64,000 nt of DNA from a virus (IMGVR_UViG_3300032214_001486:40975-104974); one strand, 5' to 3'; positions 37,677 through 64,000 are shown, numbered from the stretch's first letter. Numbers and translations are program-made. The notes: generated from the sequence alone by a model not told the origin.

Positions 37677-39146
37677 TCAGCGACGACGGCGGGGGTTCGA
37701 CTTGACGTTCTCGCCCAGCATTTCGTCAATGACTTCGTTGATCAGCTTCTTGATCTCCGCTTCCAATTGAGCGTCGCTCATGCCCTCGCCCGACACAGCC
37801 GGGCCGCGGGAAACCGGCGCGACGACCGGAGCGGAGACAACGGGCGACGGCGCAGGCGCGGGAGCCTCGGGGATAACCGGGGCCGGCGGCGTTGTCTCGA
37901 TGATCGCCTTGGCGACTTCGGGCGAACCCGCAGCAGCAGGACGAATGGCGGCCAGCAGAAGTACAATGTTCTTTTTGATGTTTTCGATAAACTCTTTTTG
38001 GAATTCCGCTTTGGTCTGGTTTTCTTTGGGCGCAGCCTTGGCCGCGTAACGGGCAAGACCAGCATAAACCTTATCTACCTCAGAAGGTGTACCCCCCTTC
38101 CGTTTGATCATTTCGCGTAGGGCGGCCTCGATTGCGGGTGTAATATCCACAGGATTACGCCGGGCACCGTTAGAACGTGTCAGACGGTTACGGGGGTTCC
38201 CCAGGATCTTAGCAAAGGCCGCGTCAATCTCAGCCTGTTCGCGCTCGGCCTCTGTCATTTCCGGCGCAGCCGCAGGGGCAGGTACAGCAGACGACTCATT
38301 CATAGCAGCCAAAAGGAGATCAGACCCGTCATCTTCCTCGACGGCTTCGGCCTCGGGGGGCAGCGGCGAAGGCTGGGAGTCTACAATGTCCACGTCTACG
38401 CCGGCCTTATTGGCGATCTGCTCCACCGTATCGGCCACGTTCTCGGAAATGGCCTGGGCCTGCTCGGCGGCGGCCGTCGCATCCTGGGCCGCAGCTACGG
38501 TCACCGGGACCGCATCGGCGGGCTTTTGCTTGCGGGTCCGGGTGACCTTTTCCGCACCCTCCACGACAGCGGCGGCGTTGTTCGTCACGCCCTGTAGACG
38601 CTTGGCCGCCTCTAACTGCGTTTTAAGATCCTCCAACGCCTGCGAGTACGCCACGGGAGGGCGGCCAACACGGGCAGGGAGGGCAGTCCAATCCTTGCCT
38701 GCGCTCGTCTTAAAGACCTTTTTTTGCAGCTCAGCGATGTTCCGCTCGATAGCCGCTACCGAGTCGGTCGTGTCCTGCTGCTTTGTCTCAACGACCGCCG
38801 CGGCGGCCTTTGTAATCTTGGCCGCAGCCTTTTGACCCTGGGCCTCGGTCAGATTGACGGTCGGAGTCGGCGGAGGGGAAACAGCCTCCTGCACCGCGGG
38901 GCTTTGCATACCCCCAGCCATAAAGTCCCTGTGGTATTCGCCGCCGGGAAGGAAGGCATTTTCGTCCAGGTTATTGTACGCGGCCAGCCACTTTAGGTAG
39001 GTCGCAACCGCACCAGGGGCCGGGTTGCGGCGGCTCTTTGGGTTGGCGCGGGGTATCCAAGAGGGCGGCGGCTGGGCCGTCCAGGCCGAGCTAACCGACA
39101 CCCACCGCTCTCCACGCTGTTCGTGACTGCTGTTCCGACGAGCCAT
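37677..39146 (-). CDS. putative virion core protein with multiple RxN(P) motifs
   Basis: RRNS, RANP, RRNP, RSNG, RRNP, KSNPRRRR; AT-hook-like VGRPP; GGAGGT RBS. Confidence 0.65.
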   Translation of the reverse strand: MARRNSSHEQRGERWVSVSSAWTAQPPPSWIPRANPKSRRNPAPGAVATYLKWLAAYNNLDENAFLPGGEYHRDFMAGGMQSPAVQEAVSPPPTPTVNLTEAQGQKAAAKITKAAAAVVETKQQDTTDSVAAIERNIAELQKKVFKTSAGKDWTALPARVGRPPVAYSQALEDLKTQLEAAKRLQGVTNNAAAVVEGAEKVTRTRKQKPADAVPVTVAAAQDATAAAEQAQAISENVADTVEQIANKAGVDVDIVDSQPSPLPPEAEAVEEDDGSDLLLAAMNESSAVPAPAAAPEMTEAEREQAEIDAAFAKILGNPRNRLTRSNGARRNPVDITPAIEAALREMIKRKGGTPSEVDKVYAGLARYAAKAAPKENQTKAEFQKEFIENIKKNIVLLLAAIRPAAAGSPEVAKAIIETTPPAPVIPEAPAPAPSPVVSAPVVAPVSRGPAVSGEGMSDAQLEAEIKKLINEVIDEMLGENVKSNPRRRR

Positions 39147-39205
39147 AAGTACCTCCAAAGCGAAATCGAAGTGTCCCTAACCCGGTTCAGGGCGCACGCA
39201 AGGCA

Positions 39206-39715
39206 TCATCGCACCCGCGAGGCCCGGCGTCTATACCCTTTGCGGGCCTTGTTTGCCTTGACGGTCGCAGTTTTAGGGCCCCCGGCCTTCGCTTGCACCG
39301 CTAATGCCGCCGCTTGGATTATTTCGTCCCCGTGCTCTTTTAACTGCTCGGCGACTAAGGAAGCAAGGGCCTTGGCCCGGTCGTCGTCAGACAGAAACAG
39401 CCGCGCAGCCGGGTTGAGGGTCGAGAGCTTGCGTAAAATCTCAATCTGCCTTTCCGGGGTCGCTGCTACGAATTCATCCACATGCCCCTGTACTTTCTTG
39501 ATTACTGTGGGCAGAACAAGGGGGAGAATTGCACGCGCCGCTGCGACTAAGGCAGGATGGTTGGCACGAACCGGGGGAAGGGGGGAGCCCACCACGATCA
39601 CATCAAGACCAGGGCGTTTAAGGGCGGCGGCGTCTAACAAGGCATCGGCCTTGTTTTTGTACGGGCCGACGTTCCCGTAAGCGTTCCCATTTTTTCTGAT
39701 CTCGATGCGATACAT
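39206..39715 (-). CDS. putative basic core protein
   Basis: RKNG, RANH, KANK motifs; basic tail. Confidence 0.6.
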   Translation of the reverse strand: MYRIEIRKNGNAYGNVGPYKNKADALLDAAALKRPGLDVIVVGSPLPPVRANHPALVAAARAILPLVLPTVIKKVQGHVDEFVAATPERQIEILRKLSTLNPAARLFLSDDDRAKALASLVAEQLKEHGDEIIQAAALAVQAKAGGPKTATVKANKARKGYRRRASRVR

Positions 39716-39744
39716 GGTGGGCTCCCAAGGTGCGACGGCTTACT

Positions 39745-40917
39745 TTACTTCCGGGCGCGGAAGCTGATTTTGCGACCATCGCGGGTACGGAAGCTCACGT
39801 TGCTGTTGCGACGGCTGTTCGCACGGAGCGCCATCGACTGCACGCGCTCACCCGCCGGCAGGACGTTATCGAGCAGGGCCCGGCTGGTGGCCGGCTTGCG
39901 GCTGCTGACGCGGTAGACCCACGCTTCCCAATTGCGACCGTTGACCGCCCCATCCACAATGAAGCCGTCCACGACTTCACCCAGACCGGCGTTCTTGAAT
40001 TCGGCAAGGCTTTCATCACCATCGTCGATCATGTCCAACGCCATTTTCTGACTAATCCGGTGATCCGCGACCTTCGCCGCAGTACGGAGCAGAGTCTTGG
40101 CGTCAATGGCCGCCGCGCGAGCGGTCGCGTAAGGCCCGAGATCGGCCCCGCGGTTGAGGTCGAATTCACCGTTTACCAGCACGGCGACGCGGTAGATACC
40201 CACGCCGGCCCGCCGACCGCCCTTCGCCTTGTGCTTCTCGCTGATTTTCACCCGAGTAGCAGTAGAGGGCACAATCCCCTTGCGCGAAGCACGGCCCTTG
40301 GGGGCCTTGCGCTCCGCAGGAAATGCCTCTTTCATTCCCGCGCGCACAATAGCCAGCCGTAGCTCCTCGGCCGTCAATTGCGAGTAGCTCGGGATCTTCA
40401 GACTCTTAGCCTCCTTCAGCAGACCTTTACGGTCCAGCCCGCTGATCTCCTCTTGAATTTCTTGGCGCGTTTGAGCCCGCTCACTCTTGGGGGCTTTGTC
40501 CGGCAGCGGGTAGGAAACATCCACCTCAGCCTTGACAACGGCCGCCAGCAGATCCTTCGCGCCCATCTTCGATAGGCCGGTCAGGCCCAGATCTTTTGCA
40601 TCTGTGCGAAGGATATTTAGCTTTTCTTCCCCCTTGTACTTAGCGTAAGCAGCACGGACTTCCGCCCGATACTGCTTGCGCTGCTCCTTGATTTCACTCA
40701 AAGTAAAACCGCCGGAGACAGCCTGAGCGGCGGGCTTCGAGGCGGCAGGCTTCGGAGCCGGGGCGGGGGCGGGGGCGGGCGCCGCGACCGGGGCCTTGGG
40801 GGCCTTGGGGGCAGCGGAGGCGGCAGCGGCTTGAGCCTTTGAGGGGCGGTCGCGCTTCTTTTTTTCGCCGGCCTTAGCCTCGGTTTTGGTGTCGGTGCTG
40901 TTTCGGAAAACCAACAT
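39745..40917 (-). CDS. basic nucleic-acid-binding core protein with two Rho-N/HEH-like motifs
   Basis: AKDLGLTGLSKMGAKDL and AKSLKIPSYSQLTAEEL; FRNS, RANSRRNS. Confidence 0.65.
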   Translation of the reverse strand: MLVFRNSTDTKTEAKAGEKKKRDRPSKAQAAAASAAPKAPKAPVAAPAPAPAPAPKPAASKPAAQAVSGGFTLSEIKEQRKQYRAEVRAAYAKYKGEEKLNILRTDAKDLGLTGLSKMGAKDLLAAVVKAEVDVSYPLPDKAPKSERAQTRQEIQEEISGLDRKGLLKEAKSLKIPSYSQLTAEELRLAIVRAGMKEAFPAERKAPKGRASRKGIVPSTATRVKISEKHKAKGGRRAGVGIYRVAVLVNGEFDLNRGADLGPYATARAAAIDAKTLLRTAAKVADHRISQKMALDMIDDGDESLAEFKNAGLGEVVDGFIVDGAVNGRNWEAWVYRVSSRKPATSRALLDNVLPAGERVQSMALRANSRRNSNVSFRTRDGRKISFRARK

Positions 40918-40949
40918 TACAGTCTCCTGTCGGTGCGGGGGTGTGGGGG

Positions 40950-41333
40950 TTACTGCGAAACCATCAGAGCCAATTCGACGGTCACCGCATTTCCGGCGGG
41001 TGCTGTGACGGCGAGCCGGATAAACTTGCTCGGCACGACCGCCACAGGAATTACGGTTGGAACCCCCGGTGGAAGTACAGTAGCAGATACCTCTAAGGGG
41101 ATCAAGGTCTGAACCGCGTTGGCGTCAGAAATTGAGGCTTGAACCGAAACGGTCGCCCCCGCAGCCCCCGCCGTCTGACTCGCATAGACCAGAAGGCGCG
41201 GGGCGCCTCGGTTTTGGAGATAGGTGAAGAACGTGGTAGCCCCCGCATTGATCACGCGCGCTTCCCAATACTGAGAAAGCTGCGTGGCTGCGACGACTAT
41301 AGCGCCCGTGGCGGTTGCGTTTACATGCGACAT
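40950..41333 (-). CDS. small all-beta jelly-roll-like virion protein (penton or vertex candidate)
   Basis: 127 aa of alternating beta strands ending SKFIRLAVT...VTVELAL. Confidence 0.55.
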   Translation of the reverse strand: MSHVNATATGAIVVAATQLSQYWEARVINAGATTFFTYLQNRGAPRLLVYASQTAGAAGATVSVQASISDANAVQTLIPLEVSATVLPPGVPTVIPVAVVPSKFIRLAVTAPAGNAVTVELALMVSQ

Positions 41334-41342
41334 ACTGCCCCC

Positions 41343-42029
41343 TTAGTAGTACGACGCCATGAGTCGGAAATTGTTACTCGGGACGCCGGCCACAAGCCAG
41401 CCCGGCTCGTCTATGAGAGGCGAGCTACGGTACTGAAAGCGAAGCTCGCAGCGCCAGTAACGGATGGGGTAGCCCCCACCAGTCGGCATGAATTGGGCGA
41501 CGGCGGAAGGCATCGTGCCGACAAAATCGGTCGTTATGTCCTCGTCGTCGGACACCTGCTGAATGGCGTTGGGGTCGTTGATGCTTGCGTATTCCCGCGC
41601 AAGCACCCGGAACCCAAAGGACCGAGCCCATGTGCGGAAATTCAGGTTGTAAATCTGGACCCACAGCTTGCCCGCAGCCCCCAACGGCCGCCAGATCGGG
41701 TATGTACCCGTGTTCTGGACGACCGTTGGCGTGGCTACAGGGGGCCCAAACGTCTGCGGCGAACCCGTCAGATAGGCTTGACCCTGGCCCCGGTCCATCG
41801 CTGCGCCACGAAGCTCGGGGCGCAGGTCGAAGGTAGCAGAGCGCCAAACCGCCTGGGCGTAGACCAGGGGCTCGGCAAGCTCCAGCGCGTACTGCAATTC
41901 GATGGGGGTGATATTCCACAACGCCGTAGGCATGTTTGCCGGATACGGGTAGGGAATGGCCCCCAGCGGATTTGCGAGGAACGCAGCATCCGAAAATTGG
42001 TCGGGATTGCGACCGGGGATTTTTGTCAT
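41343..42029 (-). CDS. putative minor capsid or vertex protein
   Basis: Beta-rich, aromatic (WRSATFDLRP...IRYWRCELRF); in the capsid block. Confidence 0.55.
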   Translation of the reverse strand: MTKIPGRNPDQFSDAAFLANPLGAIPYPYPANMPTALWNITPIELQYALELAEPLVYAQAVWRSATFDLRPELRGAAMDRGQGQAYLTGSPQTFGPPVATPTVVQNTGTYPIWRPLGAAGKLWVQIYNLNFRTWARSFGFRVLAREYASINDPNAIQQVSDDEDITTDFVGTMPSAVAQFMPTGGGYPIRYWRCELRFQYRSSPLIDEPGWLVAGVPSNNFRLMASYY

Positions 42030-42031
42030 GC

Positions 42032-42727
42032 TTATTGACCGACGGTGTAGTTGCTGGGCGCGCGAACCTCGACACAATGCAGAGAAATGTCGATCCGCAG
42101 AGAGGCGAGCAGCGGCGTGATCCCAAGCTGGACGGACGCGCCCGGCTGAATGACATAGCCCGTGCCGCCGACTTCGCCGGGGTTAAAGCCGTCACCGATA
42201 CAGGTTGTCGCCAACCGCGGGCCGGTCATCAGCTTGTCGCCTGTCGAATACTCGATGCGGAACAGGTACGTTCCGTTGGCTTGCACGCCCAGCGGGAAAG
42301 CGTTGCCGACCCCCGTATTGAACGCACCGCCGTTCATGGCGATAAGGTAACAGGGAATGTCAAAGTTGACAATTCGAATAGCCTCCTGCCCAACCGTATA
42401 GTCCGGGTCACCCGACGACAAAGTAGCGCCGTAGAACCGGGTCTGTGTGCCGATATTGCCGGAAGTAGGCAGATACGGGGCGGTCGGGAACACCGGGACA
42501 CGAACAGCGCGAGGGGTCTGCGGCTTTTGCGCGGCCTGCTGCGTCACCTGCAAGAGCGCCTGCAATTGCTGGCCCTGGGCCGCAACCTGCTGGGCTTGAA
42601 TATGTAGCTGGGCCTGTAGGGCTGCGATGTAATTACCGACCGCACCGCTATTCCCGTAGGGGTCAGCCCCGGCAACCAGCGCGCCCATGCCGGGCATTTG
42701 CGTAACCGCGGATCGAAAGTCAGACAT
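42032..42727 (-). CDS. second single-jelly-roll-like capsid protein candidate
   Basis: Short N-terminal coil then about 150-aa beta sandwich (FDIPCYLIAM...VIQPGASVQL...IDISLH). Confidence 0.6.
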   Translation of the reverse strand: MSDFRSAVTQMPGMGALVAGADPYGNSGAVGNYIAALQAQLHIQAQQVAAQGQQLQALLQVTQQAAQKPQTPRAVRVPVFPTAPYLPTSGNIGTQTRFYGATLSSGDPDYTVGQEAIRIVNFDIPCYLIAMNGGAFNTGVGNAFPLGVQANGTYLFRIEYSTGDKLMTGPRLATTCIGDGFNPGEVGGTGYVIQPGASVQLGITPLLASLRIDISLHCVEVRAPSNYTVGQ

Positions 42728-42864
42728 GATTTACCCCTTTGTGGGAGTACGGAGAGGGAGACAGGGGGGAGTATACCCCAAGGGGGGCCCCGAGGGGAAT
42801 AGGCAAACCGGGGCGGGCCTGGGGGCCTGGAGGCTTGGGGCCTGGGGGCCTGGGGTGTAAATGC

Positions 42865-42906
42865 ACAAAAGTAAGACGGCCCGCCCGCGGAGTCCGGGGC
42901 GGGCCG
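42865..42906 (-). terminator. rho-independent terminator after the major capsid candidate
   Basis: CGGCCCGCCC/GGGCGGGCCG stem plus TCTTACTTTT on the minus strand. Confidence 0.7.
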
Positions 42907-42954
42907 AATGGGGAGTATCGGAAGGGGAAACCGACCCTCCACCGGGGGTACAGA

Positions 42955-43647
42955 TCAGCCGATCTCGATCACGTTCTTGTAATAGCCCAGGAGAGCGACC
43001 TTGATCGCCAGGGCGAAGTTCGCGCCTACGGCCGGGGCGCGGCTACCAAAGCGGAGGATGGTCGAGAAGGTCGTGGTGGCCGGGAGGGCGACCGCGTGCT
43101 TCCGGTACATCCAAACGCTACCAGCACCGTTGTTCATCGCGCCGCTGTTCGCGCCGGCCGCGTTCTGCGACACGGAACCAAACGCGCCGCCACCAGCGCC
43201 GATCATGTGGATCGGGCTAATGTCAACGGTGGTCTGGGTGAAGTCCCAGCTCAGTACGCCGTTGTTGAGCACGTTCTGGAGGTTGCCGATCTTCTCGGGG
43301 GTGTCCAGGGGAGCCGCGAGGGAGCTATCGAGGCCCGTGCCGCAGTAGACGTGGCACGAAATGCCGAATACGTCGAACGCGACACCGGCCGGGATACGAC
43401 CGCCTTCCTTCAGAGAGGTTTCGGCGATTGTCAAGGCTTGGCCGAAGCCTTGCCCCTGCTGCCCGAGCGGGGTCGCAAACAGACGGTTGGTGCTGTTGGC
43501 GAGCGCCGCGGTCGCCGCAAAGCCCTGGGTACTCCAAATACTTTGCTCGCCGTAGCGGAAAAGCTGGGTGGGTTGGCGGAACGGAACCGGGGGGATCGAA
43601 ATGTCGGGCGGGGCCACGAGGGCCATGCCGGGAGTGCCGTAGGACAT
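42955..43647 (-). CDS. putative major capsid protein, single jelly-roll type
   Basis: 230 aa, beta-rich; LFATPLGQ...TIAETSLKEGGRIPAGVAFDVFGI motif and terminal IKVALLG strand, a pattern I associate with SJR capsid proteins; GGAG RBS, own terminator. Confidence 0.7.
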   Translation of the reverse strand: MSYGTPGMALVAPPDISIPPVPFRQPTQLFRYGEQSIWSTQGFAATAALANSTNRLFATPLGQQGQGFGQALTIAETSLKEGGRIPAGVAFDVFGISCHVYCGTGLDSSLAAPLDTPEKIGNLQNVLNNGVLSWDFTQTTVDISPIHMIGAGGGAFGSVSQNAAGANSGAMNNGAGSVWMYRKHAVALPATTTFSTILRFGSRAPAVGANFALAIKVALLGYYKNVIEIG

Positions 43648-43718
43648 GGGAAATCTCCAAGGGGGGAAGGAGCGAGGGGGAGGGGTTGCACCGAGTACCA
43701 ATTACCCGGCGCAGAGGG

Positions 43719-45131
43719 TCAGAACGCCGAGCCCGCAAAGAGGGTAGCACCAAGCTCCCCGCTGCTGAGGGCCAAGCCGTTCATATCGAGCGCCAAACCG
43801 GCGGTTTCACCCGCGGTCGCGGCAGAGGGGGTAACAACGGAGGCCGGTACAGTGGTCTGCGCGCCGGGGTTGGTCCCCGCCGAAGCAGCCGCCGCGGCGG
43901 TCTGCTGCTCAACCGTGGCGATAGCCTGGGCCTTGATTTGCTCCAAGAGAGCGACGCGCTTCTCGGGGGAGAGCGCCGCGATCTTCGCAAACCGTTCCCA
44001 GCCGACCAGACAGATCAACCAACCGAAACGGTGACCGGGGCGGCCCGCGAGCGAGCTAATACCCTGACCGTTATAGTTGATCGCCTGCGTCGGAGCGTCC
44101 CCGAAGGTGCGGTGCCAAGCGTGCTGACCCGAAAGGGCAGCTTGGCCCTCCTGTACGGAGAGATCGGCGGGGGCGTAGTAGGCATCGGCAAGGCTGGCTC
44201 CGCTGTAATCTACAGCGGAGCCCTTACCGAAAGGGACGACATCATAGGCCATCCCGTCGCCAAAGCCGGCAGTATCGGTGAGGGCAAGGCCCGACATATC
44301 GGTGAGAGCGAGGCCCGACATATCAGTGAGGGCGAGGCCATCAAGGTCGTCGTCGTCACCCGACAGATCATCGTCGTCGTCACCGTCAAGGTCGAGATCG
44401 CCAAGATCGCCGGCCTTGTCGGACAGGAAGCGGTAAATGTCGAGCGCGCCGCCTACAAGCAGAGCGCCGACCGCAACCTGATTACGAAGCTCTTTGGAGC
44501 CGACCGGGACAAAATTCAGGACAGTGGCGACAGCGGCGCCCTGTACGGTGAACTTGACCGGCGAAATGGCGCGGAGGGCCGACTTAACAGCCGGGACCGC
44601 GCTCAGACCGCGCATCAGGCCGTAGTGGACAGCGCCCACCGCGACACCGACGAGGATCGGAGAAATGTACCCCGCGACAGTGTTACCGACGACCGGGATC
44701 TTGCGGGCCAAGCCCTCGACCGGAGCGGTAAACTGGTTGCTGAACGCGCCAAAAGCGTTCCGGCGTACAACCTTCTTACCCCGGCGGCGGTTGCCGTGGA
44801 GGTTCATCAGAAGGGTGTTCCGGCGCATACGGCGCATACCGTTCCGGTGCATACCGCGCAGCCCATTCCGGCGGCCGTTGCCGTGAAGGTTCATCAGCAG
44901 GGTGTTCCGGCGCACACCGCGGCGGGCGTTGCGGCGACCGTTGCCGTGAAGGTTCATCAGCAGCGTGTTCCGGCGGTGGGAAGTGTTCCGCCGACGAGCA
45001 GCCCCCTTCCGCTTGCGGTTGGTACGCAGCTTTAACCCAGCGAGAGCGCGAGCAGCGCCCCGCTTCGGGTTAGACTTGGATACGAACAACGCGCCGCTGA
45101 GCGGTGCGCCGTTACGGAACATGAGGGGCAT
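43719..45131 (-). CDS. putative major core/membrane protein: Arg-rich RRN-repeat N-terminus, hydrophobic middle, acidic C-terminal region
   Basis: RRNTLLMNLHGN x3; TM-like segments; GLALTD x3; AAGGAG RBS; immediately upstream of the capsid candidate. Confidence 0.7.
   Translation of the reverse strand: MPLMFRNGAPLSGALFVSKSNPKRGAARALAGLKLRTNRKRKGAARRRNTSHRRNTLLMNLHGNGRRNARRGVRRNTLLMNLHGNGRRNGLRGMHRNGMRRMRRNTLLMNLHGNRRRGKKVVRRNAFGAFSNQFTAPVEGLARKIPVVGNTVAGYISPILVGVAVGAVHYGLMRGLSAVPAVKSALRAISPVKFTVQGAAVATVLNFVPVGSKELRNQVAVGALLVGGALDIYRFLSDKAGDLGDLDLDGDDDDDLSGDDDDLDGLALTDMSGLALTDMSGLALTDTAGFGDGMAYDVVPFGKGSAVDYSGASLADAYYAPADLSVQEGQAALSGQHAWHRTFGDAPTQAINYNGQGISSLAGRPGHRFGWLICLVGWERFAKIAALSPEKRVALLEQIKAQAIATVEQQTAAAAASAGTNPGAQTTVPASVVTPSAATAGETAGLALDMNGLALSSGELGATLFAGSAF
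44790..44975. repeat. three copies of a 36-bp coding repeat (RRNTLLMNLHGN)
   Basis: 44790-44825, 44877-44912, 44940-44975. Confidence 0.9.
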
Positions 45132-45219
45132 GAGGTAACTCCTTTTTTGGAGGTCCAGAGGGGCATGGATGATCTTTGCACAGTCGAACCCGGTTGGGTA
45201 TGTGGTACAACAACACCGG

Positions 45220-45258
45220 AGGCCCTTCGAGGGCCCGCCGAGGGCCCTCAAAGGGCCT
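45220..45258. promoter_or_regulatory. double palindrome, candidate operator
   Basis: AGGCCCTTCGAGGGCCC-GCCGA-GGGCCCTCAAAGGGCCT between divergent genes. Confidence 0.6.
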
Positions 45259-45620: not shown

Positions 45621-46256
45621 TTAGTGCGTGATGCCGTTATTGGGGCAGGTGTATCCGCCGCCGACAATCCAGAAATTGCCGTCCGCAGAAACCGCCAGGG
45701 CCGGCTCGATCCCGCCTTCCTCCCCCATCCGGTGAATGTACTTGCTCGCCGGGTCATCACCCTTTTTGTGGGTGAAGTAGGTGACGTAGTAGAGGATACC
45801 CAGCGGCTTGACGGTCACATCGGGGTAACCGTGCAGGTGGTGCCCGCCAATTTCCTTCGCCAAGTCTTTCAGCTTGATCCGCGAGCTTGACGGCAGCGCG
45901 TTCCATAGCTGCTGCGCGTCCCGCTTGGACGTTTGAGAGAGCAGAATATAGAGGCGCTGATACTTGTGCTTAGGGTCGAAACTCAGGTGATTGTTATTGT
46001 AATCTTCAGGAGGTACTTCAATCAAAGCCAGGGTAGAAGGCTCATTTCCCATGCGGGCCGCTTCCTCGTGAAGCGACTTGGTTTTCACCATACGCAGGTT
46101 GAGCCCTTCTACCGGGTCGAAGTGTAGCTCGGTGAGCAGCCCACACTCCATGAGCGGGTGCTTAGCCGACAAGCCGGGAACATCAAATTCCCGCTTGTGC
46201 GTGGCGGGATTGCCCCAATGCCAATCTTGGTAGATTTCGTTGTACTTGCGCGACAT
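45621..46256 (-). CDS. virion-associated hypothetical protein
   Basis: YQDWHWG...YVTYFTHKKGD...YIHRMGEE...GGGY; last gene of the membrane-protein operon. Confidence 0.65.
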   Translation of the reverse strand: MSRKYNEIYQDWHWGNPATHKREFDVPGLSAKHPLMECGLLTELHFDPVEGLNLRMVKTKSLHEEAARMGNEPSTLALIEVPPEDYNNNHLSFDPKHKYQRLYILLSQTSKRDAQQLWNALPSSSRIKLKDLAKEIGGHHLHGYPDVTVKPLGILYYVTYFTHKKGDDPASKYIHRMGEEGGIEPALAVSADGNFWIVGGGYTCPNNGITH

Positions 46257-46258: not shown

Positions 46259-47038
46259 TTAGACTCCCTTGAAAGCCAGCAGGACCAGACCAAGAACGGC
46301 GACGGTGCCGACCCCACCATACACCATCAACCGCTGTTTACGGGCACGCGCTCGCCGCGCTTTCACTCGCTGGTTTTTGCGTTTCTTCTTTTTTTCTTCC
46401 TCGGAAGCGCCCGGTGTGAGGGCGTCCTTGGTCGCGGCCTCCTCTGCGCTGGGGTCCAGCTTGTACTTTTGCTGGTCAGCGACCATTTGCGGTAAGCCGG
46501 TGCCCCCCTTGGGCCGCTCACCAAAGTAGACCGACAACGCTCGCAATTGAGGGTCAGACACAATCTGAGGGCCGCTGACGGCTTGAACAGCAGCCCACCC
46601 TTGACCCATGATCGAAACGATAGCCCCTATGTCCTTTGAATTGATTTTCAGAGAGTCAACGCGGCCCAAGGTAGCCTTCGCCGCGGAGGCAAGGCCGGGA
46701 TTTTTGAGATACCGGGCGGCCAACGCCATGAGATAGGCGGATTTAACGTAGGCTTGCGCCATATCCGTAGGCGCCTTCTGGACCCGGTTCGCAGCAGGCC
46801 CCATGAAACCGATGATGGTGTTGAGCCAAGCCTGATTTTCAGCCAAGCCGATCTGCTCTAAGGCTTCGTCGGGCTTGACCGAAGTGAAGTCGTATTTTTC
46901 GTTTAAGTGCTCTGCGTACTTCCCGGCTGCCGCGCCAATGACGTAGCGCCCCCCATAATAGGTGCCGACCGCCAGCGGAATGAGAGGCACCCCATACCCG
47001 CCGTCAGAGTGGGCAGAGGGCCGAAAAAAGGTCGTCAT
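46259..47038 (-). CDS. C-terminally anchored membrane protein
   Basis: Basic run then TM helix; ATGA coupling. Confidence 0.7.
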   Translation of the reverse strand: MTTFFRPSAHSDGGYGVPLIPLAVGTYYGGRYVIGAAAGKYAEHLNEKYDFTSVKPDEALEQIGLAENQAWLNTIIGFMGPAANRVQKAPTDMAQAYVKSAYLMALAARYLKNPGLASAAKATLGRVDSLKINSKDIGAIVSIMGQGWAAVQAVSGPQIVSDPQLRALSVYFGERPKGGTGLPQMVADQQKYKLDPSAEEAATKDALTPGASEEEKKKKRKNQRVKARRARARKQRLMVYGGVGTVAVLGLVLLAFKGV

Positions 47039-53777: not shown

Positions 53778-54055
53778 AGGGTCGCTCCGGTCTGGACAGC
53801 GGGAGAAGCGAGAACAGCGGCGGCTTCTGCCTTCTTTTTGCGTCGGGTCAGGACCAGCAGGACCACGCCGCCGAGCAAAAGAACGCCAGAGCCCGCCAAG
53901 GCAGGTACGAGCCAAACGGAGGGCTTCTTCTTCGGCTTCTTCTTCGGTTTCTTTTTCGCCGGGGTCGGAGCCGGGGCCGGGGGAGTGTTCCCCCAAGACT
54001 CAGACTGCGCGGAGGGCTGAAACTGAATGGGGGGCTGAAAAATGGCTTGTGGCAT
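53774..54055 (-). CDS. small membrane protein
   Basis: KKKP x3, TM helix, RRKKK. Confidence 0.7.
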   Translation of the reverse strand: MPQAIFQPPIQFQPSAQSESWGNTPPAPAPTPAKKKPKKKPKKKPSVWLVPALAGSGVLLLGGVVLLVLTRRKKKAEAAAVLASPAVQTGATL

Positions 54056-54758: not shown

Positions 54759-55502
54759 CTACTCGGCGGCCGGATCAGCATCGTCGGGCAGCCGGCACCA
54801 ATTGATATAGGGCGTGGTGTACTCCAAGTGATCTGCGAATTCTCGGTAGGCGAGGGCCGAGGCCACCTGCACGATATTTTCAGTCACTTGGCGGGCGCGC
54901 TTTTTGCCCCAATGCGGCACCAAAGCGAAGATCGCCTGGGTTAAGCCAGGGAAAGCGCGAATGTAGATCCAGGGAGCCTGCCCACCAAAATTGAGCATAT
55001 CCATCAAAGCCTTTGCCCGGTCAGGCTGGGGCTCCCCCTCAATGCCAAAATTGGTGTTCCATGTGTGGAGCAGCCCGTACCACGCATTGAGCCCTTCTTG
55101 GTAGAGCGGGTGTCGGTGCGTTGTCGGTTCCCCGATATTGCGAACGGACTCCGGGTTGAAAGGCGGCTCCCCGTCCCAGGACTTCGGTTCATTCCACACG
55201 TCCAAATCCGGCTTGATAGGCGGGGCCCCGGAAAGGGCCCTGGTCAGCGTAGGATAAGGATCGGGGGCGGGGTGTTTATCGGCGTGGCTGCCCGCTGCGT
55301 GTGCCTTGGGTGCGCCTTGGGTGCTGTAGGGTGCGCCTTGGGTGCTGTAGGGGTTGGGTGCATCAAGGCCGGCAGAAGCGGGGGGAGCCCCCCTTTCCTC
55401 GCGGGGAGCGCCAAAATTGGGGGGCGGTTCCCACCGCATTAGGGACTCCATGATCAGCACTAACTCTGCGATATTGTCGGTTTCAACGATAAAGAGCCTC
55501 AT
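54759..55502 (-). CDS. hypothetical protein
   Basis: ATGA coupling; PYSTQGA duplicated. Confidence 0.7.
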   Translation of the reverse strand: MRLFIVETDNIAELVLIMESLMRWEPPPNFGAPREERGAPPASAGLDAPNPYSTQGAPYSTQGAPKAHAAGSHADKHPAPDPYPTLTRALSGAPPIKPDLDVWNEPKSWDGEPPFNPESVRNIGEPTTHRHPLYQEGLNAWYGLLHTWNTNFGIEGEPQPDRAKALMDMLNFGGQAPWIYIRAFPGLTQAIFALVPHWGKKRARQVTENIVQVASALAYREFADHLEYTTPYINWCRLPDDADPAAE

Positions 55503-58216
55503 TCCTCACCTTCCTCGGCGTCGTCGCCGTCGTCGTCGTCGTCATCATCATCATCGTCGTCACCGTCGTCATCGTCCTCGTCGTCAAAGACAATGCCCCA
55601 ATTCATATCGGGAACCAACGGATGCTCTTGGAGCAATTCTACCACGTCGAGGGCCGTGTCCTCGGTGGCCCCTGCGCGCAGTAAGCCCTGATAGACGGTA
55701 TCCTCTTGGAGTAGGACGTAAATACGCTTCTCCGCAGTCAGGGCGCGAATGATCAAGGCTTCCCAAGTGTCTTGGGGCTGCGACTGACACTGTTGTACCA
55801 ACGCGACAAGGGCCGCCTGCGCGGCGTTGCGATCCGAGGGGGACATGCGCTGGGGGCCGGCATTTTGGGCCGGAGCCTGCGCTGGGGCTTGGGCTGGTGC
55901 CTGAGCCTGGGCCGGGATGGACGGGGCTTGAACGGCCTGGGCCGGCTGTACCTGCTGAGCCGGCTGGGCCTGCTGGACCTGCTGAGCCTGGGGAGCAGCC
56001 TGCTGAACGGGTCGGGCTTGCGGAGCGGGGGAAACACCGACAAACGGGGCTTGAACGGGCCTTTGTTGCATCGGCGGCGGCTGCATGGGCGGCTGCTGCA
56101 TCGGCCGGGGCTGCTGCGGGGGCAGAACCCGCGGCATAGTCGGGTTCTGAACGCCCCCGACCATCCCCGGTGCCGGGAGGGCCATGCGGGTTTGCGGGGC
56201 GGGAAGGGCCCGTTGGGGTTGCGTACCCCCCTGGGCACGGCGCTGAGCGGCACCCGAGATCATCTTGGCCTTGGCTACCTCCCCCACGGTCATCATCACC
56301 TTGCCGGCAAGGTCCGCCCAAATTGGGGTATTGTCAGGCTCGGGGGGCGGCGGCGGGTTGAGGAACCGATCTACCAATTGCTTAGGCTCGACGCCCACCG
56401 CGGCCAGTAGGGCGGTCGCCTTTGCAATAGCTTCCTCGACAGAAGTACCCTTGACCGATTGCGCCGCTTGAACGGCCAATTGTAGCTGCATCTGCTGTAG
56501 CTGAGCCATCGCCTGCTCATGCTCCCGCTTCGCTACCTTTTCGTCCTCCAGCCGCTTTAGCTCTAACTCATGGGCGCGCTGGTCGGCCTTCTCTTTCCGC
56601 TCACGCTCGGCCTGCTCGATTTTCTCCTTTCGCTCCCGATCTTCCCGCTCTATCCGCTCCTTTCGCTCTCGCTCCTCTCGATCCAAACGCTCCCGCCGGT
56701 CCCGCTCCTCGCGCTCTGTGCGGTTACGTTCTTCTCGTTCACGCTGCTCAGCCTCAAAACGGCGGGTACGTTCCTCCCGCTCCATTTGCCGTTCCTGCTG
56801 AAATTCTTGGGCGCGGCGCAAAAGCTCGGCCTGAATACTCTCCGCTTGGGATTTCATCTGCGCGACTTGCAGCTCAATTCCCTGCTGCTGTAGCTTCGTC
56901 TGCGCCTCTAAGCGCATACGCTCCGCTTCAATCGAAGTCTTAGCCTCAGCCCGCTGCTTCTCAGCGTCAATCCGCATCTGTTCCAGACGGGCCTTAACTT
57001 CCGCCTCGACTACGGCTTGCCTGCGGTCATGCTCCGCCTGCTGGCGCTGGGCCGCCGCGGCATCGTCGGCCAATTGCTTCGCCAGCTTGCGATCAAACTC
57101 AGCCTGCTCACGGGCAAGCCGGGCGTTGATCGCGGCTTCCTCACGGGCAAGCCGGGCCTGCTCCCGCTCGATTTCAGACTGGAACCGCTTTTCCGTTAGC
57201 TCTTTGTCCAGCCGGGCCCGTTCCGCCTCTTTGTCCGCAGCGATCCGCGCAGACTGTACTTCACGGTCAGCGGCCTGCCGGGAAGCCTCTAAAGTCTGCT
57301 GGAAGAACGCGGCGCTATTGTCCGATAGCTGCTGGCTCTGCGCCCGCATTTGTTCCAAGGCCAGCCGTGCGCGTTCCTGCTCAGCCTGCATCGACTTTTC
57401 AGCGAGCGACTGAATTGCATTGGTGGTAACCGCGTTATTCTGCGCCTGTAGCTCGACCTCGCGGGAAGCGTTGAGGCGCGAACGCTCCTGCTCGGCTTGG
57501 GTCATCTGAAAAGTACGATCCATCGCACTCTGCATCAGGCCGAAAACGCTGTCAGGCACGGGGGGCGGGGCCGCCGGAGGCTGCGGGTAGCCGGGGTAGC
57601 CGGGGTAGCCAAAACCCCCACCGGGTACACCCAACATGCGAAGCTGGCGCTGCCGTTCTTCTTCTTCTTCGCGGGCTCGGAGGGCCTGCAATACCACATG
57701 GTCGGCGCCGATGGTCTTTTCAGTCTCGTGGCCGATCTCTTTGCCATCCCGGCCCAGCGGCCAAATCTTGAATATGGCCCGATCATCACCAGGGCGAGGC
57801 ATTGAGTTACGGAATTTCTTGACGAAATCTTCCTCCGTAGCCTCAGCCGGAATGGTGCCAAGGGACACCCAGGCGCCGTTATCGAGCTTATGTACCTGCA
57901 AACCCAGGACAGCCGGGTAGTTACCCCCCTGGACAAACAGCCGGGGAGAGGACGACCGGCCCGCAAGGGTAGAAATGCGGCTGTCGATGGGCGACTCGGT
58001 AGATACACCGCTAATCTCTACCGGGGCGTTGAGATTTTCTAACGGGGTGTCAAAACCTTCACCGTCGCCCCCTTCCTCAGAATTCTCGTCGTCCTCCTCC
58101 TCAAAAGCAGAGCGAAACCGGGGGGCCGGCGTCGGGCGCTCTGGCCTGGGTCGCCCCCTTGCAGGCCGAGTATCCTCAAAGGCGTTGTCGAGATCATCCC
58201 TACCGCGGATCGGCAT
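55499..58216 (-). CDS. large coiled-coil protein with P/Q-rich region and poly-Asp tail
   Basis: About 350 aa of E/R/Q/A heptads; terminal D-run; ATG at 58216. Confidence 0.8.
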   Translation of the reverse strand: MPIRGRDDLDNAFEDTRPARGRPRPERPTPAPRFRSAFEEEDDENSEEGGDGEGFDTPLENLNAPVEISGVSTESPIDSRISTLAGRSSSPRLFVQGGNYPAVLGLQVHKLDNGAWVSLGTIPAEATEEDFVKKFRNSMPRPGDDRAIFKIWPLGRDGKEIGHETEKTIGADHVVLQALRAREEEEERQRQLRMLGVPGGGFGYPGYPGYPQPPAAPPPVPDSVFGLMQSAMDRTFQMTQAEQERSRLNASREVELQAQNNAVTTNAIQSLAEKSMQAEQERARLALEQMRAQSQQLSDNSAAFFQQTLEASRQAADREVQSARIAADKEAERARLDKELTEKRFQSEIEREQARLAREEAAINARLAREQAEFDRKLAKQLADDAAAAQRQQAEHDRRQAVVEAEVKARLEQMRIDAEKQRAEAKTSIEAERMRLEAQTKLQQQGIELQVAQMKSQAESIQAELLRRAQEFQQERQMEREERTRRFEAEQREREERNRTEREERDRRERLDREERERKERIEREDRERKEKIEQAERERKEKADQRAHELELKRLEDEKVAKREHEQAMAQLQQMQLQLAVQAAQSVKGTSVEEAIAKATALLAAVGVEPKQLVDRFLNPPPPPEPDNTPIWADLAGKVMMTVGEVAKAKMISGAAQRRAQGGTQPQRALPAPQTRMALPAPGMVGGVQNPTMPRVLPPQQPRPMQQPPMQPPPMQQRPVQAPFVGVSPAPQARPVQQAAPQAQQVQQAQPAQQVQPAQAVQAPSIPAQAQAPAQAPAQAPAQNAGPQRMSPSDRNAAQAALVALVQQCQSQPQDTWEALIIRALTAEKRIYVLLQEDTVYQGLLRAGATEDTALDVVELLQEHPLVPDMNWGIVFDDEDDDDGDDDDDDDDDDDGDDAEEGEE

Positions 58217-58269
58217 TTGTACCCCCCTTTTTGGCTTGTGAACAATGCCAATCCCACCCCTAACCGCCT

Positions 58270-58298
58270 TTGACAATAAGGCAAGAGTAGGTTACATT
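58270..58298 (+). promoter_or_regulatory. sigma70-like promoter
   Basis: TTGACA-N17-TACATT. Confidence 0.65.
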
Positions 58299-58316
58299 TA
58301 TAGTGAGAGGTACTCT

Positions 58317-59314: not shown

Positions 59315-59374
59315 CCCAGGCTCGCTCTTGGAGTACCCTGCCCACACTTCCCCCCACCACCAATGAGGCAGACC

Positions 59375-59998
59375 ATGAGCGATCTCGGCTTTCCCACCAT
59401 CCCCGGCACGGAACCCGCATACAACGTCGATAATCTCCAATTCGACACTGACCCCGAGACTATGCGCCGGCAATACTACGCGCAGACTCTCGCCGCGCAG
59501 CAGCAGCAGCAGCCGCAAACCTTCATCCCGTCTGCCGCGGAAACACCGGGAACAGCCGTGGTGGCCCCTGCCCCCGTCTCTATCGAGGCGTCCGCAGACA
59601 CCGGGTATTATGGGGGTATGTACGACGACGATTATGGCGATCCCGGCGAAAGCAACGACTTCTATGACAGTGTGCAGCAGGGTAGTGTTCTCGTCGGGTT
59701 CGCCCTAATCGGGCAGGTTGCCGATCAATGGCTCAAAGAGCGCACCGGGGCCGCTGGCTACGGCCCGATTTTGGGCGCGGCTACCGGAAACGCCCTCAAC
59801 ACCGTCATCGCGGCGAGCGACGGCGGGGCCAAGGCCAGCGCGAAGGCGCTGGGCGGCGCCCTTCTGCCAATGCTGCCGCTGGTGGCCGCGGTGGGCCTAA
59901 AGAAAGAGATTAGCGGGGGTACTCGGATTGCCCTTCTCCTTAGTAGTGCGGGGCTGCTCGGCGCCTCCCTCTACATGAAAAAGCAGGGGAAGAAGTAA
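59375..59998 (+). CDS. multi-pass membrane protein with acidic N-terminus
   Basis: Promoter TTGACC-N17-TACCCT at 59311-59339; several hydrophobic helices, basic tail. Confidence 0.7.
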   Translation: MSDLGFPTIPGTEPAYNVDNLQFDTDPETMRRQYYAQTLAAQQQQQPQTFIPSAAETPGTAVVAPAPVSIEASADTGYYGGMYDDDYGDPGESNDFYDSVQQGSVLVGFALIGQVADQWLKERTGAAGYGPILGAATGNALNTVIAASDGGAKASAKALGGALLPMLPLVAAVGLKKEISGGTRIALLLSSAGLLGASLYMKKQGKK

Positions 59999-60000
59999 TC

Positions 60001-61294: not shown

Positions 61295-61297
61295 AAT

Positions 61298-61942
61298 ATG
61301 GCGACAGGCAAATCACAGAACGGCTGGCCCGCGTCGCCCAACGCCGCAAGTGTAGGGATTAGGCCCTTTTCGTTTGTGCTGCGGGGGGTTCCCCGTAAGC
61401 TGATGCTGGCAGAGTCCGTCGCACCTCAGCTTATTGAGATCATTCAATGGTGGGACCAGAACATCGAGCCCGTCACGCAGTTAGGTAGCTGGAATTACCG
61501 GGAGATCCGCGGTAAAGAGGGAACAGGGGTTCTATCTAACCATTCCAGCGGAACAGCGGTTGACATTAATTGGGATAAGCACCCGCTCGGGGCGGTGGGG
61601 ACCATTCCGGCGGACAAAGCAGCAGCGTTGCGGGCCAAGGTGTCGAGCCTCGGGCTGCGCTGGGGCGGCGACTACAAGCGCAGGAAAGACGAGCACCACG
61701 TTGAAGTCGCATACGGGCCCCTACAGCACACGGCGGTCGTGCGGGTCCAGCAGGCGCAGCAGGCGATCACGGGTGGAAAAAAAGCCGGTACTGCCGGGGC
61801 CCGGCGAGCCGCAAGACGGCTTTACAAGGAGAGGCGCGCTGTCTATACTGTTACTGCTATCGTATCTGCGATTTTTGTGGTAGGCTTAGGTGGTCTGCTA
61901 CTTCAACGCAAAAAGACAGCGCCGCCGGGAGGGCTGAAATGA
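61298..61942 (+). CDS. M15-family Zn peptidoglycan peptidase with C-terminal membrane anchor
   Basis: SQNGWPA, YREIRG, SNHSSGTAVD, RWGGDY, DEHHVE; terminal TM plus basic tail. Confidence 0.88.
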   Translation: MATGKSQNGWPASPNAASVGIRPFSFVLRGVPRKLMLAESVAPQLIEIIQWWDQNIEPVTQLGSWNYREIRGKEGTGVLSNHSSGTAVDINWDKHPLGAVGTIPADKAAALRAKVSSLGLRWGGDYKRRKDEHHVEVAYGPLQHTAVVRVQQAQQAITGGKKAGTAGARRAARRLYKERRAVYTVTAIVSAIFVVGLGGLLLQRKKTAPPGGLK

Positions 61943-62706
61943 ACGAGGACAATGTTTGCGAAGTTACCCTTGTACGGACTCCGCAAGGGGACTACACGCT
62001 GGCCGGTATTGACGACTACCTCAACGAAGTCGGGGATATGGGCGACGCCGCCAGCCGACGCAAGCGGCGGACAGAGCGGAAAAAGAAGCGGTACTCCAAA
62101 GCCAGCAAAAGCACCCGGAAGGCCGCGATTGCCGCCCGCGTAGCTACCCGGATGGCGATCCGAGCGGGCAAAGTGAAAAAGGGCCGGGTTAGCAAGGCCG
62201 CACGAAACGCCCGGCGGGCTGCCCGTAAGGGTTCGAGCGTGCTGGCGTCGGTTGTCGCCGGTCTAATGGCGGTCGGCCTATCCAAAAAGACCGCTACGGC
62301 CTACGCTAAGCGGGCGATTGCGCTGCTCAGCGGCAAAAAGAGCAAGAGCAAAGGCAAGAGCAAGGGTAAGAGCACCGCGAAGCCCACGGCGGACGAAAAG
62401 CTGGTCGCCGCTGCCACCAACGAGGAGAACGCCGCGGAAGCATCGGGTGAAACCGAGGAGGACGAAGCGGAGGACGAAGGGGAAGGCGAGGACGACCTTG
62501 AGGGTGAAGATGCAGAATTTGACGAGGAATATGACTCGGGCCCCGGCGGTACAGAAGTCGCGGGCTACGGTGCAATCCCCACAATTGATCGCGTCAAGCC
62601 TTTCATCCCCTGGATTGTGCTCGGGGTTGGCGCCCTGGCTATCTGGAAATTCAGCGCGTCCGATGCTCCGGCGGCCGACAAAGCCCCGGCCCGAAAGAAG
62701 CGGTGA
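61939..62706 (+). CDS. C-terminally anchored membrane protein with basic and acidic blocks
   Basis: LAG...MGD, K/R-rich block, E/D block, VAGYG, FIPWIVLGVGALAIW. Confidence 0.72.
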   Translation: MNEDNVCEVTLVRTPQGDYTLAGIDDYLNEVGDMGDAASRRKRRTERKKKRYSKASKSTRKAAIAARVATRMAIRAGKVKKGRVSKAARNARRAARKGSSVLASVVAGLMAVGLSKKTATAYAKRAIALLSGKKSKSKGKSKGKSTAKPTADEKLVAAATNEENAAEASGETEEDEAEDEGEGEDDLEGEDAEFDEEYDSGPGGTEVAGYGAIPTIDRVKPFIPWIVLGVGALAIWKFSASDAPAADKAPARKKR

Positions 62707-62775
62707 TCGAGGGGTAGACCTCCCTCGACCCCCTGTGGTACGATCTGCCGACCCCCATTTCCCCTGGAGAAAACA

Positions 62776-64000
62776 ATGTCCCAAGCTATCCGGTTAGGTG
62801 CGCGACCCGTCGATGATCGGGTGAACGTAGAGCGGGCCTTAGAAGCCTTCAACCGTTTCATGTTCCTAAAGCGCATGGGCGCGCCGCAGTCGGTGACCCT
62901 GCCCGTCGCGCAGCAGGTTGTGCATTACCTGCAAATTGCGCGCCGCTATGTCAACGGCTACGCCCTGGTCAGCGCCTACAGCGGCCCGCACCGGCTGATC
63001 TGGTACAACTTTGTCCGCCGCGCTACCTTTCGCGCATTTAGCGGCGCGGAGTTAGGGGCTGCCGGCGAGCGCAAGAATATCTCGCAAGCCCTGGCCCTGT
63101 TCAGCCAATGGAAGGCTCTGCCGCGGGGAAGCGCGGAGCGCAAGGCGATTGCCCGTCAGATTGTGAGCAACCTGCGCGTTGCGATCAATCAGGACAACGT
63201 ACAGATCGACGAGATCATCAGCGCGTGGACAAACGGTTCTGCTCCGAAGGCATGGCGCGGCTTCGCCCGCCGGGCCCAGGATCGTTCGCGCCGCCAGCAG
63301 GGCCGGGGCCAATACAGCGGCCTGGAATTGTCGGGTCCGCCCGCGCTGAGCAAGCGCCCGAATATCGCGCAGGCTTTGTCTCTCTACAATCAGTGGAAAG
63401 CTCTGCCCAAGGGTAGCTCGGAGAAGCGGACGGTTGCCCGTCAGATTGTGAGCAACCTGCGCGTTGCCGTAAGCAAGGAACGAATTGGGTACGCCGATCT
63501 GGTCAGGGCTTGGCCCCTCGCTATTCCGGGCGGCCAGCCCCCGAAGTCGTGGGTAGGTTTCGCCCGCCGCGCGGCCACACGTTCGACCACGAAGGGCTCG
63601 TACAGCGGCATCGGCATCTACAACAACGCCGACCTACCCATGATGGCCGGGTCCGATCTTAGCCTCGACGGCTTAGGTGACCTCGGGGCCGGCGGTGCCC
63701 GCCTGCGGGCCGCCTCCGAAATGAAGGCCAAGATCGCGGCGTACAAGAAGGATATTTCTGTGTTTGAGGGCCTTCTGAAAGAGGAAGGCTTGGATGCAGA
63801 CGAGAAGGCCAAATACCAGGATAAGATCGACTTCCGCAAGGAACGGATCAAGAAGCTGGAGAAGGGCCTAAAGGAGAAGGCCGAGCGGAAGGCCGGTCGG
63901 CGCCGCTGGGCAAAGTCTGCCGCCGCGACCCTCAACCCCTACGGCTTTGCGGGCGATGATCTCGACGGCGACGATATGGGGTTTTTGGATGACCTCAGCG
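62776..64000 (+). CDS. polyprotein-like protein with three tandem ~90-aa helical repeats (runs off the window; absent from ORF track)
   Basis: GGAG RBS, ATG at 62776, open to window end by my translation; WKALP...ARQIVSNLRVA...W..FARRA repeats; 34-bp identity at 63149-63182 and 63434-63467. Confidence 0.8.
   Translation, partial: MSQAIRLGARPVDDRVNVERALEAFNRFMFLKRMGAPQSVTLPVAQQVVHYLQIARRYVNGYALVSAYSGPHRLIWYNFVRRATFRAFSGAELGAAGERKNISQALALFSQWKALPRGSAERKAIARQIVSNLRVAINQDNVQIDEIISAWTNGSAPKAWRGFARRAQDRSRRQQGRGQYSGLELSGPPALSKRPNIAQALSLYNQWKALPKGSSEKRTVARQIVSNLRVAVSKERIGYADLVRAWPLAIPGGQPPKSWVGFARRAATRSTTKGSYSGIGIYNNADLPMMAGSDLSLDGLGDLGAGGARLRAASEMKAKIAAYKKDISVFEGLLKEEGLDADEKAKYQDKIDFRKERIKKLEKGLKEKAERKAGRRRWAKSAAATLNPYGFAGDDLDGDDMGFLDDLS

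Follow-up and report, generated by a model that had tools for sequence, protein, structure and literature searches.

What kind of particle, if any, is encoded by a large viral genome in which no terminase, portal, HK97 capsid or tail gene can be found? This question is raised by IMGVR_UViG_3300032214_001486:40975-104974, a stretch of 64,000 nucleotides (hereafter the window), which forms the last 64 kb of a linear contig of 104,974 bp recorded as a virus in IMG/VR. The completeness of the contig is estimated by CheckV at 85%, and it seems to be nearly complete. To our knowledge, all tailless, membrane-containing bacterial viruses have small genomes of about 10-20 kb, with archaeal counterparts reaching about 30 kb, and all bacterial viruses above about 50 kb are tailed and built on the trio of HK97 capsid protein, terminase and portal. 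The window carries a block of about 20 minus-strand genes at 37.7-58.3 kb, which includes four consecutive small genes (43647 to 40950), referred to here as genes 1 to 4. On balance, we lean towards the view that this block is the virion-building module of a new lineage of tailless, membrane-containing, large double-stranded DNA viruses of bacteria, and not of a tailed phage; the lineage genomes that are complete or nearly so measure 73 kb and about 105 kb.

The block was followed through 88 related loci, namely four IMG/VR records, four contigs from metagenome-assembled genomes (MAGs) and 80 loci fetched from among 228 metagenome stretches, which derive from JGI and other metagenomes of lakes, oceans and groundwater. 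A relative of 72,988 bp (G001) bears a 127-bp direct terminal repeat and is collinear with the contig if circularised. Wherever a contig extends far enough, the gene order of the block is kept: 247 aa, 195 aa, transglutaminase, 121 aa, 486 aa, 85 aa, 473 aa and 263 aa, followed by 320 aa, 292 aa, 211 aa, 510 aa, genes 1, 2, 3 and 4, 390 aa and 169 aa. Genes 1, 2, 3 and 4 were found by tblastn in 88, 66, 56 and 28 of the 88 loci, respectively, and their order is invariable; the run of four small genes described in an earlier note on this DNA is real and conserved. From its first gene onwards, the block contains the following features (window positions):

55499-58276, minus: 925-aa protein that opens the block; long coiled coil, part rich in Pro and Gln, acidic tail
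54759-55502, minus: conserved 247-aa protein
54130-54717, minus: conserved acidic 195-aa protein
52887-53996, minus: transglutaminase-core (papain-like) enzyme with a C-terminal membrane anchor (PF01841)
52495-52860, minus: conserved 121-aa protein (15 loci, median identity 50%)
50936-52396, minus: 486-aa low-complexity protein with a weak C-terminal anchor
50604-50861, minus: conserved 85-aa protein (16 loci)
49175-50596, minus: 473-aa protein with a C-terminal membrane anchor (13 loci)
48792-49175, minus: 127-aa protein with a poly-Arg stretch and a C-terminal membrane anchor
48001-48792, minus: 263-aa protein with a C-terminal membrane anchor (15 loci)
47035-47997, minus: 320-aa protein, basic and coiled in its middle, with two hydrophobic segments (19 loci)
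46259-47137, minus: 292-aa protein with a C-terminal membrane anchor (hydropathy)
45621-46256, minus: conserved soluble 211-aa protein (43 of 88 loci)
43719-45251, minus: 510-aa protein directly upstream of gene 1 (72 of 88 loci)
42955-43647, minus: gene 1, 230 aa, jelly-roll protein (AlphaFold model) and candidate for the major capsid protein
42863-42906, minus: terminator-like G+C hairpin with a U-rich tail, about 50 nt past the gene 1 stop
42032-42727, minus: gene 2, 231 aa, long N-terminal helix (28-65) and jelly-roll sandwich (93-222; AlphaFold model)
41343-42029, minus: gene 3, 228 aa, conserved small protein directly after gene 2 (56 of 88 loci; 11 word-based homologs)
40950-41333, minus: gene 4, 127 aa, Ala/Val/Thr-rich small protein after gene 3 (28 of 88 loci)
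39745-40917, minus: very basic 390-aa protein after gene 4 (17 loci)
39206-39715, minus: basic 169-aa protein (13 loci)
37677-39158, minus: 493-aa low-complexity protein

The last of these, the 493-aa protein, has no homolog in the 88 related loci or in G001, and its membership in the module is uncertain. No family match was obtained for the 211-aa protein, and its leads in an Atlas search lie at chance level. A plus-strand open reading frame (ORF) over the 510-aa gene (43428-45035) was rejected as non-coding, the minus-strand frame being the one conserved in 72 loci. Apart from the block, the contig and G001 have in common a replication and recombination set, a tyrosine recombinase, a 148-aa gene (29400-29846) and a handful of partial matches or short ORFs. 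Since they share little else, the particle genes, if a particle is made, must be in the block.

Which of these genes would then provide the shell? Gene 1 is the element's best conserved gene: the proteins of the contig and G001 are 62% identical, compared with 55% for the polymerase. A collection of 5.8 billion proteins contains 759 homologs, the best 120 of which show 59-98% identity, and the median identity over the 88 loci is 60.6%. The GC content of these loci ranges from 32 to 72%, and the lineage therefore infects very different hosts; the high-GC host proposed in the earlier note suits this member and not the family. Among the 49 genes of the window, gene 1 has the strongest codon bias, with a G+C content at third codon positions (GC3) of 0.818 (median 0.688) and an effective number of codons (ENC) of 36.9 (median 49.1). 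It is also followed by a terminator of its own, as had been noticed before. Past this terminator and before gene 2, the spacer (42740-42860, minus strand) contains a run of short repeats of the CCCCAGG/CCCAAGC type. Longer or fused forms of gene 1 were looked for and none was found; it occurs solely as a stand-alone protein of about 230 aa. At 11 of the 88 loci, gene 1 is present as two to three tandem paralogs, for instance at L008:7777-9205, L067:9197-10663, L068:6047-8208 and L086:4-2148. When L008 and L067 are compared, each paralog type pairs with its counterpart, and the differences between the types fall in the same few alignment stretches. Genes 1 and 2 are separated by inserts of 1-2.6 kb at L006:10727-13282, L088:10895-13336, L031:3099-4946, L079:3923-5758 and L011:11147-12037, some of which open with a motif like that of NUMOD4/HNH homing endonucleases (e.g. 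YxxSNLGRxxx), a likeness of motif only. Because of its conservation, codon bias, own terminator, stand-alone form, tandem paralogs and the adjoining homing-endonuclease-like ORFs, gene 1 is most likely a shell protein and not an accessory one.

The predicted fold of gene 1 points to the same class of proteins. Its AlphaFold model, based on a 78-row alignment, has eight to nine strands and one helix (predicted local distance difference test, pLDDT, 72.7). Foldseek comparison of this model with the PDB yielded weak matches only (best E 1.6e-3), nearly all of which are viral jelly-roll capsid proteins, and comparison with BFVD yielded only weak, mixed jelly-roll matches. Below the top of the structural ranking stand cement proteins of tailed phages (KHP40, Z 7.2; Pam1, 6.9; GP4, 6.3), alongside which satellite-virus coats and nucleoplasmin-type cores are ranked; lower values were obtained for HCIV-1 (5.6), HHIV-2 (5.4) and P23-77 VP17 and VP16 (4.8). 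A prediction of a complex between gene 1 and residues 66-231 of gene 2 scored 0.00, which bears on neither side.

The cement proteins bring in a first alternative, in which the genome belongs to a very divergent tailed phage whose HK97, portal and terminase genes lie beyond the reach of profiles or were left unassembled; genes 1 and 2 would then code for jelly-roll proteins that cement or decorate a capsid, or for fibre knobs. The fold of gene 1 matches proteins of the KHP40, Pam1, GP4 and Bbp16 type at equal Z (6.3-7.2), and the replication genes are of phage type. However, such cement proteins are accessory proteins of 117-155 aa on an HK97 shell, whereas gene 1 encodes 230 aa and no HK97 gene was found; moreover, for an accessory protein one would not expect conservation and codon bias stronger than those of any other gene in the genome. 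We regard this alternative as rather unlikely, and the searches for tailed-phage genes weigh further against it.

These searches covered several data sets. Using Pfam and PHROGs, no terminase, portal, HK97 capsid or tail family was detected among the larger ORFs of the window and the remaining 41 kb of the contig, and no head, tail or packaging family among the large ORFs of G001, whose sole PHROG tail match is weak (E 6.4e-4, 50 residues). When four related virus records were searched in six frames, the TerL profiles (PF03237, PF03354) had no match at E <= 1 and those for the portal (PF04860) and HerA (PF01935) had none; the HK97 capsid profile PF05065 was likewise not matched and no PHROG head family was seen, with folds modelled for two proteins only. 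TerL, sheath, tube and neck proteins of cyanophage S-T4 had no match by phmmer in 903 kb of family DNA. Walker-A scans of the contig and G001 revealed P-loops solely in helicases, Sak4, thymidine kinase and an SbcC-like protein, leaving no unassigned P-loop. Three candidates for a packaging ATPase were rejected: a weak match to FtsK (PF01580) in a relative is the Walker-A motif of the SbcC-like gene, a 311-aa Walker-A ORF (C1 26470-27405) is Sak4-like, and a 619-aa P-loop gene beside the block in low-GC relatives encodes a UvrD/PcrA-type helicase. The earlier note had reported that terminase, portal and tail genes are missing from the 64 kb, which agrees with the Pfam and PHROGs results, with the caveat of one ORF with homology to a virion protein that is taken up below. 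It had also named two observations that would speak against its reading, the lack of a jelly-roll fold in the models or the presence of an HK97 capsid, terminase and portal elsewhere on the contig; genes 1 and 2 are modelled as jelly rolls, and no HK97, terminase or portal gene was found on the 105-kb contig or G001.

Could the tailed-phage genes simply lie outside the assembled DNA? The contig ends in an open frame (window 62776-63999, plus strand) and starts with a frame open at its 5' end (C1:2-175, plus strand), which has a long acidic tail; acidic Asp/Glu tails also terminate the 925-aa protein and a 208-aa protein. The assembly was probably interrupted within a single gene of a genome that is circular or permuted, and the contig probably closes on itself. 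The 925-aa and helicase genes lie 8.4 kb apart across the contig ends, similar to the 7.2 kb between them in G001. A divergent tailed phage is thus confronted with a contig that appears to close and leaves no space for a missing module of 20 kb, with no terminase, portal, HK97, sheath, tube or neck signal and no unassigned P-loop, and with the lack of any other structural-looking module conserved between the contig and G001. Furthermore, the dense run of genes for tail-anchored membrane proteins in the block is foreign to the head modules of tailed phages.

This run was defined by a Kyte-Doolittle hydropathy scan. C-terminal hydrophobic anchors are predicted for six minus-strand genes (52887-53996, 49175-50596, 48792-49175, 48001-48792, 47035-47997 and 46259-47137) and for three plus-strand genes (59363-59998, 61298-61942 and 61939-62706), and a weaker one is found in 50936-52396. 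The total of about ten agrees with the count given in the earlier note; these predicted tail-anchored proteins are consistent with a membrane and do not show one. The first of the six genes, 52887-53996, matches Transglut_core (PF01841, E 3.5e-10) and its Cys/His/Glu triad is kept in the relatives, in line with the transglutaminase-like enzyme proposed before. One of the plus-strand genes outside the block encodes a further anchored enzyme:

61298-61942, plus: M15 D-Ala-D-Ala peptidase with a C-terminal membrane anchor (PF13539, E 1.6e-11)

The M15 peptidase is a candidate cell-wall enzyme for lysis or entry. Several proteins of the block are strongly basic. The 510-aa protein encoded upstream of gene 1, which had been singled out as an Arg-rich membrane or core protein, indeed contains 62 Arg/Lys residues, three RRNTLLMNLHGNGRRN-type repeats in its Arg-rich N-terminus, a hydrophobic middle segment and an acidic repeat. 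The ENC of its gene (40.7) is the joint second lowest of the 49 window genes, and the protein is a candidate for linking genome, membrane and shell. The 390-aa protein has 76 Arg/Lys residues and two helix-extension-helix (Rho_N-like) motifs, with a weak Rho_N match (E 2.8e-4), and is a candidate DNA-condensing core protein. The 925-aa coiled-coil protein has a 675-aa homolog in G001 (38569-40596, minus strand) and is a candidate scaffold or size- or length-determining protein. The longer protein occurs in the larger genome (105 kb) and the shorter in the smaller (73 kb), which fits a ruler or scaffold role, as seen in these two genomes only.

Since membrane proteins are numerous and several strongly basic proteins are candidates for binding DNA, an enveloped or pleomorphic virus has to be considered as well. 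Here, a nucleoprotein core would be surrounded by a membrane, and the tail-anchored and jelly-roll proteins would serve as spikes or matrix. That no packaging ATPase was found suits such a virus, and the design of gene 2, a coiled helix with a jelly-roll head, is common in spikes. Gene 1, however, lacks any hydrophobic segment or membrane-attachment signal in the hydropathy analysis; its conservation, tandem paralogy and expression signals are typical of a lattice-forming shell protein, and its best structural matches are shell proteins. For these reasons, we consider an enveloped virus unlikely and retain the virus with a shell as the preferred reading.

What do genes 2 to 4 contribute? The AlphaFold model of gene 2 is the better of the two (diverse 71-row alignment, pLDDT 86, sandwich above 95) and combines the long helix at residues 28-65 with a jelly roll at residues 93-222. 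The earlier note had called all four genes beta-rich, which the modelled beta-sandwiches support for genes 1 and 2 only. Its notion of paired capsid genes was not borne out: genes 1 to 4 are not detectable paralogs, profile-profile comparison revealed no mutual relation among them and the 211-aa protein, and the true pairs are the tandem duplicates of gene 1 in some relatives. When 71 aligned sequences of the gene 2 family were compared with PHROGs, there were zero matches; profiles of genes 1 and 2 found nothing meaningful among PDB sequences, and an Atlas search with gene 3 returned chance-level leads only. Weak matches to the gene 2 sandwich (E about 1e-5) occur in multiple copies in P0219 and P0221, two giant surface proteins of bacteria, one of which is sorted by the type IX secretion system (T9SS) and has Flg_new, Big_2 and LRR_5 repeats. 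This likeness could reflect a shared beta-sandwich module or an effect of composition.

The surface-protein matches also lend themselves to the idea that there is no virion module at all, and that a plasmid-like or other mobile element carries a block whose role lies at the membrane or cell surface. None of the hallmark virion genes can be recognised, the tyrosine recombinase is conserved, the 127-bp terminal repeat of G001 would equally fit a circular replicon, and contigs of the family have been binned with MAGs of several phyla (the four MAG contigs are labelled Alphaproteobacteria, Gemmatimonadota and 'proteobacterium'). On the other hand, the protein-family searches turned up no conjugation or partition genes, and binning to unrelated phyla is easier to reconcile with free viral DNA than with a plasmid. 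The sample of one contig bears the label '01um', apparently for a 0.1-um filter fraction of groundwater, and homing-endonuclease-like ORFs are inserted beside gene 1. A viral origin is further supported by the IMG/VR record, the peptidoglycan peptidase of the M15 family, the tRNA and tmRNA (transfer-messenger RNA) genes and the phage-type replication and recombination set. The latter lies in the first 46 kb of the contig, where genes are chiefly on the plus strand, and by Pfam and PHROGs comprises an SNF2-type helicase, a PD-(D/E)XK exonuclease, an annealing protein resembling Sak4, two DNA methylases of the N6/N4 type, a fusion of a family A polymerase with a uracil-DNA glycosylase domain (PolA-UDG), a Rad50/SbcC-like ATPase and the tyrosine recombinase; a primase was found in G001. 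Among 50,697 phage records, the nearest polymerase is that of Virus Rctr197k, with just 27% identity. Ten tRNA genes and a tmRNA gene of 425 nt (tag ANNNNHFGNAVPVLVAVAA) form a single plus-strand cluster upstream of the window (contig C1:10974-17766). A tmRNA carried by a virus is unusual. Taken together, an element without a virion appears quite improbable to us, and the preferred reading remains that of a virus with a jelly-roll shell and a membrane.

How would such a virus compare with known systems? In the archaeal virus SPV1, single jelly-roll proteins form hexamers and pentamers, an inner lipid layer contains sub-capsomer proteins, and the genome is held in a nucleoprotein core; the functions assigned to SPV1 proteins include no packaging ATPase (PMC8459092). 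By analogy, we infer that the module works most like those of the Portogloboviridae (SPV1) and of the single jelly-roll viruses with two capsid proteins. However, the lineage qualified for neither group in the tests applied: no sequence similarity to these viruses and no packaging ATPase was found, it has a bacterial host and its own replication machinery, and its genomes (73 and about 105 kb) are 3-5 times as large as theirs (20-30 kb). For P23-77, SH1, HHIV-2 and HCIV-1 (Sphaerolipoviridae, Simuloviridae and relatives), genomes of 16-30 kb are given in PMC12643093 and PMC12642351, and according to 10.1101/741942, most viruses of the wider PRD1-adenovirus jelly-roll lineage share a packaging ATPase of the FtsK/HerA type. 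The earlier note had placed the virus close to P23-77, SH1 and HHIV-2. Whereas those viruses possess the FtsK/HerA ATPase, it was not found on the contig or G001, and membership in the P23-77/SH1 group is unsupported because the packaging ATPase is missing; in addition, the sequences of genes 1 and 2 resemble neither one another nor any protein of solved structure. The large genome that the note inferred does stand; no known jelly-roll phage comes near it in size. The double jelly-roll membrane phages (PRD1/PR772, PM2 and Autolykiviridae) differ as well, as each protein is a single jelly roll here with no fused form found, an FtsK/HerA ATPase is not present in the searched genomes, and the genome is 5-10 times larger. 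Full-text literature searches retrieved no description of such a lineage, which is not proof of there being none.

From these comparisons, a way in which the particle could be built can be outlined. The jelly-roll protein encoded by gene 1 would be made in the largest amount, aided by its own terminator and strong codon bias, and would form the lattice of the outer shell. Gene 2, with its coiled N-terminal helix and jelly roll, and genes 3 and 4 may supply minor shell, vertex or spike parts. A lipid layer beneath the shell would hold the roughly ten tail-anchored proteins, including the papain-like enzyme with the transglutaminase fold; the anchored M15 peptidase (61298-61942) may also reside there and digest the wall at entry or exit. 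Condensation of the DNA would fall to basic proteins (the Arg-rich membrane protein of 510 aa together with those of 390 and 169 aa), as in SPV1, and no terminase or FtsK-type motor would pump it into the particle. It is tempting to extend this outline to a realm-level group of bacterial viruses with worldwide occurrence, whose genomes measure 73 and about 105 kb and in which a single jelly-roll shell covers a protein-rich membrane, filling proceeds without a motor by condensation of DNA on basic core proteins, the 925-aa protein acts as a ruler and gene 1 paralogs form mixed capsomers in some lineages, making the group a bacterial counterpart of SPV1 with a genome several times as large; this wider proposal is possible, though doubtful.

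Several points weigh against a tailless virus with a jelly-roll shell. The lineage is known here from its genes alone, with no particle seen; folds were modelled for genes 1 and 2 only among the four small genes, and the confidence of the gene 1 model is middling. The hallmark genes are judged to be absent on the basis of profile searches, and extremely divergent sequences can escape these. The ORF mentioned above, which encodes 525 aa and lies outside the block (window 10208-11785, plus strand), is homologous to the cyanomyovirus 'virion structural protein' phrog_1645, with about 30% identity over 90%. It is the sole link to tailed-phage virion proteins, and in Synechococcus phage S-T4 the phrog_1645 gene lies between the small and large terminase genes. 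That G001 is complete is judged from its 127-bp terminal repeat, whereas CheckV gives 53%. Finally, we know of no bacterial precedent for filling a shell with 70-105 kb or more of DNA without a motor.

Between about 11.8 and 58.3 kb of the window, nearly all genes are on the minus strand, with almost no Pfam or PHROGs matches. Next to the block lies a run of large minus-strand genes (window 12529-37097) that encode proteins of 820, 786, 663, 900 (weak GHKL ATPase match), 1501 (SNF2) and 719 aa (SNF2), together with beta-helix proteins at 14277-15392 and 20665-21255. This run is not kept as a whole in the 73-kb relative, and the SNF2 genes alone match in a few other loci; relatives have different giant ORFs (1379-1870+ aa) at the same place after the capsid block. 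The products of the run may be packaged or host-takeover proteins. At the start of the window, the Rad50/SbcC-like ATPase (contig C1:40447-42267; window 1-1293, plus strand) is kept in three related genomes beside the polymerase and recombinase genes. No SbcD-like partner was noticed near its gene, and, helicases, Sak4 and thymidine kinase aside, it is the sole conserved ATPase without a settled role and so a possible participant in genome condensation.

What would it mean if the preferred reading holds? A lineage of 70-105 kb or more with its own replication, tRNAs and a tmRNA and without the hallmark genes would break the size rule for tailless viruses and add a major branch to the virosphere; the longest contigs with gene 1 homologs reach 134-163 kb. 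It would also raise the question of how a large genome is enclosed without a packaging motor. For virus-finding pipelines that depend on hallmark genes, the lineage is a blind spot, and its contigs are now binned into MAGs of unrelated phyla. The invariant motifs of gene 1, including RYGEQxxWS and YYKNVIEIG, provide a sharp marker for the survey and isolation of these viruses, and the tmRNA of the contig could aid in finding their hosts.

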